Assembly (NCBI RefSeq): GCF_024502345.1
Contig: NZ_JALDNN010000001.1
DNA from: Escherichia coli
GTDB taxonomy: Bacteria > Pseudomonadota > Gammaproteobacteria > Enterobacterales > Enterobacteriaceae
Reading direction: 5' to 3' (one strand)
DNA: 64,000 nucleotides
Positions 6,819-50,787 of the stretch are shown here, piece after piece. Below the pieces are notes generated by a model. That model did no database searches and was not told where the DNA came from. It saw only the letters and a list, made by a program, of their open reading frames with translations. The translations under genes were made by a program, and so were the position numbers. Position 1 is the stretch's first letter. Every line of letters starts with the position of its first letter.

Positions 6819-7182
6819 GATTTTTACCTCGACATAATCTTTTAGCTGGGCCTTTGTTTCGTGACCCATATCACAAAATCAAGTATACACTAATTATTGA
6901 GCTAATTAATACCGCGCTAACTGTTTCAGTTGATACTAAGTGTTAAAAATGTGAATTTTAATAACAAAAAAGTATTAAAAACACGGTTATTTATTATAAA
7001 TACCAGTTTTTTCAATCAGATAATGAATTTTGCATAATGTGCTTTTTTTACCGTATGTATTCACTATGTGAATGATATGTCGCGGTAAAACGCACTATTC
7101 GTTAAATGAATCGCAGGGGAAAGCAGGGGATTGAGAGGGATAAGCAACATTTTCCCCGCCGCCAGAAGCGACGGGGCAGAGA

Positions 7183-7656
<474 letters not shown>

Positions 7657-7675
7657 TCACCCGATATGGTGGTTG

Positions 7676-7715
7676 ATACAACATTATTGTGCATACAGAT
7701 GAATTTTTATGCAAA
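7676..7715. promoter_or_regulatory. candidate ARG box pair (ArgR autoregulation operator)
   Basis: ATGAATTTTTATGCA resembles the ARG box consensus TNTGAATWWWWATTCANW, about 45-60 bp upstream of the argR ATG. Confidence 0.45.
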
Positions 7716-8012
7716 CAGTCAGCCCTGAAGAAGGCTGAAATAATGTTATGAAAGAGCGGGATTTTATCAAATTTCGTTATTGAGAAACATGCCTGCGTCA
7801 CGGCATGCAAATTCTGCTTAAAAGTAAATTAATTGTTATCAAATTGATGTTGTTTTGGCTGAACGGTAGGGTATATTGTCACCACCTGTTGGAATGTTGC
7901 GCTAATGCATAAGCGACTGTTAATTACGTAAGTTAGGTTCCTGATTACGGCAATTAAATGCATAAACGCTAAACTTGCGTGACTACACATTCTTGAGATG
8001 TGGTCATTGTAA

Positions 8013-9026
<1,014 letters not shown>

Positions 9027-22458: not shown

Positions 22459-23791
<1,333 letters not shown>

Positions 23792-23866
23792 ATTTATTAG
23801 ATCAGGCGTGACCTGACCCATCTTTGGCACAGAGCCAAACCTGAACTGACGGACCGCTCTGTGCCA

Positions 23867-24172
23867 TTACCTGACGTTGTATTCTTTTATGTTAACACCC
23901 TTGATACTGTATATACCTGTCCGCTTAATTCGCTTGCCCTTTTTATTCGTAATAGTTGCTGTAAGTGTACTGCAGCGAATGGAATGACGTTCATCAATCA
24001 CCAGCCGAATTGCTTCTGAAGCATCTTCCACCTCTAGAAGGTCGTGAGTCTTATTTAAGCCGAATGGAACAAGGTGGAAGGCAGTTTTTCCTGATGATTT
24101 TCTGGTTATTTTTACTGGATACAACACATCACCACTTTTATGGATTAATTCAAGCTGTTCAATGTAAATCAT
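23867..24172 (-). CDS. hypothetical small basic protein (101 aa from the ATG at 24172), no family recognised
   Basis: ATG preceded by AAGGAAAG Shine-Dalgarno, 16 nt after the stop of the upstream YhcG-like ORF; AT-rich; the track's 113-aa version uses a TTG start. Confidence 0.4.
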   Translation of the reverse strand: MIYIEQLELIHKSGDVLYPVKITRKSSGKTAFHLVPFGLNKTHDLLEVEDASEAIRLVIDERHSIRCSTLTATITNKKGKRIKRTGIYSIKGVNIKEYNVR

Positions 24173-24188
24173 GGCAACTTTCCTTCGT

Positions 24189-24668
24189 TTATTTGCATGA
24201 ATATACAAACCGAAAATAGGAGATGCAATACAAAAGCTGTGGAAATATCAAACAGCCTCTCAATTTGGCAGACAGCGTCTGCCAAATCTTTGCCGATGGG
24301 AATTCTGCAGATGGTGTCTGCGGAATTCCCAATGGTGTTAATTCGCCAGACACTGTCTGGCGAATTTCAACATGTTGAAAAAAGAGGTAAAAAAGCCTCA
24401 TTTGGCGTAAGTTTTTTGCAGAGAACCCACGCTTATACCTTAGACTTAAATCCTTTGATAGTCGCTTGATTAGCTGCGCACCATACGCAGCCCTTGCCTC
24501 GCCACCTTGTTCAAATTCGACAATTCGTCGGCCAATTTCCCAGTATGTCGCGGTCATCAGCGCGTTAACGCTACGTACCGTTTCCGTCCGGACGCTATCG
24601 ACCAGGTGAATAATATCGTCGTGGATTTGCTGGTAGCCTGTTGAGGTTCTCTCTGAGAGCGATTCCAT
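24189..24668 (-). CDS. yhcG: YhcG/DUF1016-family N-terminal domain ORF (159 aa); either a truncated yhcG remnant or a short stand-alone variant
   Basis: First ~96 aa (ATYWEIGRRIVEFEQGGEARAAYGAQLIKRLSKDLSLRYKRGFSAKNLRQMRLFYLFF) look like the DUF1016 N-terminal domain; then three 13-14-codon repeats and a hydrophobic tail; too short for the 375-aa K-12 YhcG. Confidence 0.5.
   Translation of the reverse strand: MESLSERTSTGYQQIHDDIIHLVDSVRTETVRSVNALMTATYWEIGRRIVEFEQGGEARAAYGAQLIKRLSKDLSLRYKRGFSAKNLRQMRLFYLFFQHVEIRQTVSGELTPLGIPQTPSAEFPSAKIWQTLSAKLRGCLIFPQLLYCISYFRFVYSCK
24263..24366. repeat. array of three palindromic or quasi-palindromic units with centres 39 bp apart
   Basis: atttggcagacagcgtctgccaaat / gggaattctgcag..ctgcggaattccc / aattcgccagacactgtctggcgaatt, all built on GCCAGAC/GTCTGGC-type arms. 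Confidence 0.7.
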
Positions 24669-24851
24669 TATCTGTCCCTTTATATGGCGCTGCGTTGAAT
24701 AATGGAATCAGCTATACGCCGGGCATCTACCGGTAACAATCCAGATGAGCGTATTACATTGGTTTTCTTCAGATTATGCGAGGCGCTTTCCAGAAAGAAA
24801 GGAGAATTTCAGCGCCGACTCTTTTCTGAGGAGGCGGCGCTGGGACAGAGC

Positions 24852-26282
<1,431 letters not shown>

Positions 26283-30743: not shown

Positions 30744-31417
30744 ATCGTGAACCTCCCCCAGGCTCTGCGGGAACCCCACTACCGAACCGCTGCGCACGGG
30801 CACAGAAAGAGCGTGGCGACGGGGGTTGCGTGTCATACGCGCGCCTCGCATTCGCCCCCTTGTTGTCCTTTTCGCATCGGTTAATACGGTGAAGAGGGGA
30901 TCTCAATTACTGCATAAATATGATGAGCAGGCTGCTCATCCAGAAAGCTTCCAGCGGATCTCCAACTTATCGGGAAAGCTGATACAGGTCAAATGGCAAG
31001 CTTATTGGTACAGAAATGTGCTTTAGCGCAAAATTCTTTATTAAATGGCTGAAATTAAAATAGATTTTATCTTTAAGGCTAAAAGGGAAGTCGTTAGAGA
31101 AACAGTCAATTCCTGACTGTCATAAAGGCGTGTTAACCCTTATCCTGCCTTGAACTGACGAGAAAACCAGCATTTTATACTGCCTTAATTGGTAATGACG
31201 TTTCATGCTACTGTTTTTGCCTAAAATCCATAAGGAGATAAAAAAATCTGACACAAGATAAGCAAAAGTGATTTATGTGATTATGCATGAAATTTCGGTA
31301 ATTTTGATTGATTATGCAGTTGATAAAAGCAGGCCGGGACGATTGATCCAGGTCATCGCCGAATTGAGCTAAAAATGGCAGGCTTTGGCCTCTTTTCAAG
31401 GCGCGGTCTATCAGATT

Positions 31418-50559: not shown

Positions 50560-50787
50560 CTTTCCTCACTCCTTAAGTTAGTCGCTTTCATTCAGAACAC
50601 TTCTTCTGTCGAGCATCACTATACTCCTGATGGCCGATTGCTCTAAAAAGTTCCTGTAAAGAGTGTGAATATTCAGAATATATAAAGATGTATACACTGG
50701 TTTTTCAGTGCATTATTACGCTGAATAAGTATTCTTATGGAGTTTACTGGAATCATCCCGCGCACTGCGCGGGATGAGGGGAGGGGA

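Follow-up and report, generated by a model that had tools for sequence, protein, structure and literature searches.

The argR operator of Escherichia coli has been described since 1987. For E. coli K-12 it was reportedly published by Lim et al. 1987 (PNAS 84:6697), Tian et al. 1992 and Charlier et al. 1992, who are reported to have placed it at exactly the sequence considered here. Lim et al. 1987 are also said to have found two argR promoters, of which the operator overlaps just one, and the promoter of this operator region is named argRp1 in RegulonDB. Like the argR operator, the canonical ArgR operators (argF, argI, argA, argECBH, argD, argG, carAB P2, artJ, artP and hisJ) consist of tandem 18-bp imperfect palindromes of the type WNTGAATWWWWATTCANW. 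They overlap the promoter and are recognised by hexameric ArgR with L-arginine (PMC6640053; PMC4865122). With this co-repressor, the hexamer occupies paired ARG boxes from one face of the helix, bending the DNA (PMC4381063; PMC6640053), and the spacer between the two boxes may be 2 or 3 bp long (PMC4381063). In repressible, strongly repressed promoters the ARG boxes overlap the -10 and/or -35 elements (PMC6640053). At carAB P2, ArgR sterically blocks RNA polymerase, while polymerase coming from the upstream promoter carAB P1 is not stopped (PMC6524683). ArgR has also been stated to auto-regulate itself (PMC7505660).

We analysed a 64,000-nt stretch of E. coli DNA (hereafter the window), which includes the mdh-argR region: positions 7100-8200 matched 5425 of 5426 complete E. 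coli genomes, and the features under the match were argR and mdh. The argR coding sequence (156 aa, 7183..7653, minus strand) was taken from the list of open reading frames and corresponds to the argR annotated in 5425 E. coli genomes and in MG1655. The divergent mdh starts at 8089 on the plus strand, leaving an AT-rich spacer of 435 bp (38% GC) between the two genes. Close to argR, window coordinates convert to K-12 coordinates by subtraction from 3,392,356, and over the 120 bp located 5' of argR the sequence is identical with that of K-12 MG1655. Both boxes, the 2-bp spacer between them and the overlap with the proximal promoter match K-12 as well, with no detectable difference at the site. 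The element is thus already known; it is the described E. coli argR operator together with the argRp1 promoter. The strain differs from K-12 elsewhere, for example by being without the gltF-yhc region. Beside gltD, positions 23300..24900 carry nanQ and fragments of DUF1016 and of a transposase, in place of gltF and the yhcA-G region found in K-12. This arrangement was present over at least 80% of the query in only 721 of 5425 genomes, marking a strain-variable junction.

The segment of interest, 7676..7715, is located 23-62 bp upstream of the argR start codon. On the argR strand, positions 7715..7678 read TTTGCATAAAAATTCATC-TG-TATGCACAATAATGTTGT, that is, two 18-bp ARG boxes placed 2 bp apart. 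Very probably, 7678..7715 is argR's own ArgR operator, a two-box site lying on the core of argRp1 and mediating steric negative autoregulation. This reading is built on what was observed: the match to the motif, how strong that match is statistically, how far it is conserved and where it lies with respect to the published transcription start. As in other ArgR operators of the E. coli type, the cognate ArgR (156 aa) is at hand, being encoded immediately downstream of the operator, and argR is at once the gene under regulation and the gene that supplies the repressor.

Box 1 (TTTGCATAAAAATTCATC, 7698..7715, minus strand) is the strong one, recognised by weight matrix, consensus match and conservation, and it covers the -35 region of argRp1. 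On the plus strand it contains TGAATTTTTATGCA at 7700..7713; nowhere else in the 64 kb does a sequence come within one mismatch of TGAATWWWWATTCA, for which 0.14 matches are expected by chance. The original prediction had described a palindrome one mismatch away from the ARG box core, about 45-60 bp upstream of argR, and both statements proved correct. Since argR lies on the minus strand, the 15-mer 7699..7713 occupies 46-60 bp before the A of its ATG. The single mismatch is TGCAT for TGAAT on the argR strand, which ranks second in frequency among the variants of real ARG boxes; C was found at this position in 5 of the 20 boxes used to train our matrix, and a degenerate ARG box consensus with TGMAT has been published (PMC7826281). 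Box 2 (TATGCACAATAATGTTGT, 7678..7695, minus strand) is weak, was recognised by weight matrix and conserved core, and covers the -10 hexamer and the start site. Between the boxes lies the 2-bp spacer TG (7696..7697, minus strand). The prediction had also mentioned a degenerate partner box upstream. The partner is indeed degenerate (6.8 bits, see below), but it is upstream only in plus-strand coordinates; in the sense of argR transcription it is located downstream of the strong box, between the latter and the start codon. The inverted repeat formed by 7690-7700 and 7703-7713 is simply made up of the TGCAT half-sites of both ARG boxes.

Published data touch on this sequence in two further ways. 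Box 1 is identical at 18 of 21 positions to the strict consensus of 31 RegulonDB ArgR sites, which served as a decoy that titrated ArgR in vivo and de-repressed six arg promoters (PMC7826281). The primers used in that work carry the native argR flanks 7688-7697 and 7716-7725 (PMC7826281). A decoy built on box 1 provides indirect in vivo support that such a sequence binds ArgR. Furthermore, an ArgR site was predicted at CTGACTGTTTGCATAAAAATTC in the supplement of PMC2760140. A paper on ciprofloxacin and ARG boxes was set aside as evidence on argR, as it concerns argI.

For scoring, a position weight matrix was derived from 20 boxes of ten K-12 MG1655 operators, symmetrised, with argR left out. 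From each control region (argA, argECBH, argD, argF, argI, argG, carAB, artJ, artP and hisJ) the best consensus-like tandem with a 3-bp spacer was taken, and the tandems chosen coincide with the operators described in the literature. With this matrix, which is biased toward the consensus because its training sites were picked by consensus seeding, box 1 reached 17.3 bits and ranked first among 63,983 window positions, and box 2 reached 6.8 bits (rank 35). The pair scored 24.1 bits at its 2-bp spacing, and the next-best pair of this spacing in the window had 9.8 bits. Box 2 is tied to a single register: its score was +6.8 bits at 2 bp, the only positive value, compared with -20.5 bits at 1 bp and -4.2 bits at 4 bp, and the 3-bp register was ruled out at -12.5 bits.

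When each of the ten known operators was scored with itself left out of the training, values of 19.0-39.2 bits were obtained, so that the argR pair falls inside the range, among artP, artJ and argD. The scan with the ArgR motif that had been proposed as a check of the prediction was therefore favourable. The combination of a strong and a weak box proved common among these operators (leave-one-out scores of 5.2/20.5 bits for artJ, 6.1/17.5 for artP, 18.0/8.2 for argD and 12.8/6.2 for hisJ). Box 2 of argR nevertheless scores under every self-scored training box and is comparable only to the weakest leave-one-out boxes. The 435-bp spacer was also shuffled 5000 times with its dinucleotides preserved; a box scoring no lower than box 1 was then encountered 33 times and a pair scoring no lower than the argR pair 5 times.

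The scan also contained an internal positive control. The best pair with a 3-bp spacer in the window was found at 31282..31320 in the yhcC-gltB intergenic spacer (26.9 bits); it reads TATGCATGAAATTTCGGT AAT TTTGATTGATTATGCAGT and lies about 430-470 bp upstream of the gltB open reading frame start at 30851. The published footprint of ArgR at gltBDF spans -361 to -318 relative to the start of gltB (PMC1784095), and the gltB promoter has been used as a positive control in ChIP (PMC4381063). The pair matches the expected position of this far-upstream site, and the control thus worked. This documented target likewise consists of tandem ARG boxes by weight matrix, but it has a 3-bp spacer and is positioned more than 300 bp upstream of its promoter, from where it cannot act by promoter occlusion, whereas the argR site lies on the core promoter. 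Additional ARG-box-like matches were a 3-bp pair at 50660..50698 in the ispB-sfsB-murA region (17.5 bits) and two single matches, one at 24192..24209 at the 3' end of a 159-aa open reading frame beside gltD (16.4 bits) and one at 25623..25640 inside gltD (15.3 bits). These three may be chance occurrences or minor ArgR sites.

We then compared the 150 bp upstream of argR in 20 genera of Enterobacterales. Start codon and ribosome-binding site aside, the only invariant columns of the alignment were 7700-7714 in box 1 and 7686-7692 in box 2; the flanks of the boxes diverge. The invariant part of box 2 comprises its left half and centre (a TGCA-AAT core); in its right half, ATTCA is not retained. 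The spacer between the boxes is constant in length at 2 bp and free in sequence across the 20 genera, and an alignment of the whole mdh-argR spacer agrees with this. By this alignment, no part of the proximal 150 bp upstream of argR is better conserved across the Enterobacterales than the operator. In most other genera box 2 carries TGCAT and scores 13-15 bits. Within E. coli, the 50-bp operator stretch was identical in 5416 of 5421 genomes, in contrast to the surrounding 1.1 kb, for which 1060 E. coli genomes fell into the band of 95-99% identity.

A wider scan used one genome per species and yielded 79 argR loci spanning Enterobacterales, Vibrionales, Aeromonadales, Pasteurellales, Alteromonadales and Oceanospirillales. 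In 41 of them the 150 bp upstream of argR contained a box scoring 15 bits or more, compared with 0.33% of 1521 control windows (150 bp each, drawn from the 79 argR loci themselves). Such boxes were detected in 23 of 26 Enterobacterales and in 8 of 8 Shewanella, where the box abuts a perfect TTGACA and the promoter layout is thus different. The repressor's own motif is therefore conserved upstream of orthologous regulator genes, as expected under negative autoregulation. Statistics and conservation together exclude a chance origin of the argR operator motif.

The position of the operator relative to the promoter was examined by enumerating sigma-70-like hexamers on the argR strand and by recourse to published starts. 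The proximal promoter argRp1 (7679..7715, minus strand) offers TTGCAT (7714..7709) or TTTGCA (7715..7710) as -35 and CACAAT (7691..7686) as -10, separated by 17 or 18 nt; the combination TTGCAT-17 nt-CACAAT predicts a start near 7679. We infer this assignment of hexamers from their sequence and spacing. Mendoza-Vargas et al. 2009 reported an argR start 27 nt before the start codon, labelled 'Known sigma 70', with argRp1 at distance -1, and predicted the -35 of argRp1 in CTGTTTGCA (PMC2760140 Table S1). This start corresponds to about 7680 in the window and was represented by a single 454 read (frequency 1) together with agreement with RegulonDB, 1 nt apart (PMC2760140). The supplements of Kim 2012 with transcription start sites contained neither an argR entry nor a coordinate match. 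An alternative -10 hexamer, AATAAT (7688..7683), was ruled out, as it would sit at about -8 to -3 from the mapped start.

Given the published start at -27, the boxes extend from about -35 to +3, box 1 occupying approximately -35 to -18 and box 2 approximately -15 to +3, and the operator covers the whole core promoter. As at other repressed promoters, the ARG boxes overlap the -35 and -10 elements. The predicted overlap with the argR promoter was therefore borne out and extends to the start site of argRp1. Autoregulation of argR, the second part of the prediction, is likewise supported, as far as sequence can tell, by the matrix scan, conservation and promoter overlap, in line with the literature (PMC7505660).

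The name argRp1 implies a second argR promoter. A candidate distal promoter was found at 7743..7770 on the minus strand, with TTGATA (7770..7765) and TAACAT (7748..7743) separated by 16 nt and a predicted start at about 7736. It was the sole match of a sigma-70 consensus scan in 7550-8150; its -35 TTGATA is at least 90% conserved in the 20 genera and its -10 is conserved in the closer genera.

The assignment of box 2 as an ArgR contact deserves separate consideration. Its conserved core coincides with the -10 hexamer, and its conservation alone is thus no proof of ArgR binding. Box 1 might be the only true ArgR contact, with the second box conserved as the -10 and start of argRp1, so that ArgR would repress through one box, supplemented by non-specific contacts. 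Genera differ freely in the right half of box 2 (ATGTTGT, ATCCTAT, CAGCCGC and others), the invariant part of the box, CA-AAT, equals the -10 candidate, and the box scores low in E. coli; non-specific contacts by spare ArgR subunits have moreover been proposed in ChIP-exo work (PMC4381063). On the other hand, the TGCA half-site occurs in the exact 20-bp register in 20 of 20 genera with the spacer fixed at 2 bp, no register other than this one scores positively, box 2 reaches 13-15 bits in most genera, and strong-plus-weak pairs are normal for footprinted operators. Published descriptions of the argR operator likewise have two boxes 2 bp apart, which speaks against a single box. A second ARG box is thus present in tandem, at one of the two spacings (2 or 3 bp) in question, weak and with an unconserved right half. 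The fixed register and the TGCA half-site favour box 2 as a probably genuine but weak ArgR contact, and a one-box operator seems improbable.

Far less credible still is the notion that the palindrome is mere promoter sequence, a -35 TTGCAT followed by an AT-rich spacer, that its likeness to an ARG box is coincidental and that ArgR does not control argR through it. The TTGCAT half of box 1 does double as -35 candidate, consistent with the published -35 prediction (PMC2760140), and the region is AT-rich (38% GC). However, the invariant columns run on through AAAAATTCA (7700-7708), which belongs to the promoter spacer and is under no sigma-70 sequence constraint, and the site is the top matrix match in 64 kb. 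Strong boxes are also present upstream of argR in Shewanella, Pseudoalteromonas, Haemophilus and Endozoicomonas, where promoter layouts differ, and ArgR is autoregulated according to the literature (PMC7505660). Finally, although the site is located in the shared mdh-argR spacer and ArgR is able to affect gltBDF from a far-upstream position (PMC1784095), a role for the site in divergent mdh transcription or in another ArgR function (e.g. as accessory binding site in recombination) instead of argR autoregulation is most unlikely, since the site lies 23-62 bp from the argR ATG and about 375 bp from that of mdh, directly covers the mapped argRp1 start, and keeps its distance to argR across genera, whereas the mdh-proximal spacer varies in length and sequence.

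The remainder of the mdh-argR spacer contained several other features. A block at 7811..7856 is almost invariant in 11 enterobacterial genera, and more strongly conserved than the ARG boxes. It lies just upstream of a likely mdh promoter (-10 TATATT near 7873..7878) and contains ACAACATCAATTTGATAACAATTAAT (7828..7853, minus strand), a predicted ArcA site (PMC2760140, supplementary file 6). At 7787..7801, GTGAnnnAGGCATGT is conserved across Escherichia, Citrobacter, Enterobacter, Kluyvera, Klebsiella and Mangrovibacter. In E. coli it is contained in a hairpin, CATGCC-N8-GGCATG (7788..7807), which is not conserved as such. This hairpin and another at 7720-7737 were dismissed as functional structures, their stems not being conserved in relatives. 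Positions 7900..7915, in the mdh leader or upstream of it, form a near-perfect 16-bp palindrome, CGCTAATGCATAAGCG. A similar copy, TTATGCATTAGA, is present in E. albertii, the palindrome is not conserved in the other aligned genera, and the motif AATGCATAA recurs at about 7956. Searches of the mdh-argR spacer against Rfam returned only chance snoRNA matches (E-values 0.35 and 0.65), and no intrinsic terminators were found in it.

Returning to the two-box operator, we infer from knowledge of the ArgR family that ArgR would bind physically at argR, in dependence on arginine, and act there by a steric mechanism. When arginine is abundant, hexameric ArgR carrying L-arginine would bind both boxes on one face of the DNA, with box 1 contributing most of the binding energy and box 2 serving as a weak auxiliary. 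ArgR positioned on 7678..7715 would occlude the -35 and -10 hexamers of argRp1, so that RNA polymerase could not initiate there and the repressor would limit its own synthesis. The second promoter, about 55 bp further upstream, would probably be less affected or unaffected by the operator and provide a floor of transcription.

The argR operator differs from the canonical ones in that the regulated gene encodes the regulator itself. Its boxes are 2 bp apart (20 bp from centre to centre) instead of the canonical 3 bp (21 bp), and the pair is near the bottom of the range of operator scores, at 24.1 bits compared with 39 for argF and argI. From its position in this range, weaker binding than at canonical operators can be predicted. 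The low score and the non-canonical spacing together suggest a modest affinity and mild repression.

A possible, though rather doubtful, explanation of the conserved 2-bp spacer is that it results geometrically from the embedding of both promoter hexamers in the ARG boxes, which would couple the strength of the promoter to that of the operator. In such an arrangement, TTGCAT of box 1 would serve as -35 and CATAAT of box 2 as -10. The 20-bp period of the boxes would then produce exactly the optimal promoter spacer of 17 nt, compared with 18 nt for the canonical period of 21 bp. Window position 7689 is C (TGCAC in the box, CACAAT in the hexamer) in E. coli, E. albertii and Citrobacter and T (TGCAT, CATAAT) in most other aligned Enterobacterales. 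The change from T to C lowers the score of box 2 from 13.1 to 6.8 bits and the match of the -10 hexamer from 5/6 to 4/6.

As the element has been described before, the finding has little significance beyond correct annotation; the operator would close the negative feedback loop of the arginine regulon, a textbook single-input module. The layout of strong box, 2-bp spacer and weak box, fixed across the Enterobacterales and coincident with the -35 and -10 hexamers, represents a minor refinement, and in other gammaproteobacteria, whose promoter layouts differ, argR is also widely preceded by an ARG box. If the proposed coupling of promoter and operator were true, the T-to-C change would have lowered both the quality of the -10 hexamer and the affinity of box 2, thereby resetting the autoregulatory set-point in the clade of E. 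coli, E. albertii and Citrobacter.
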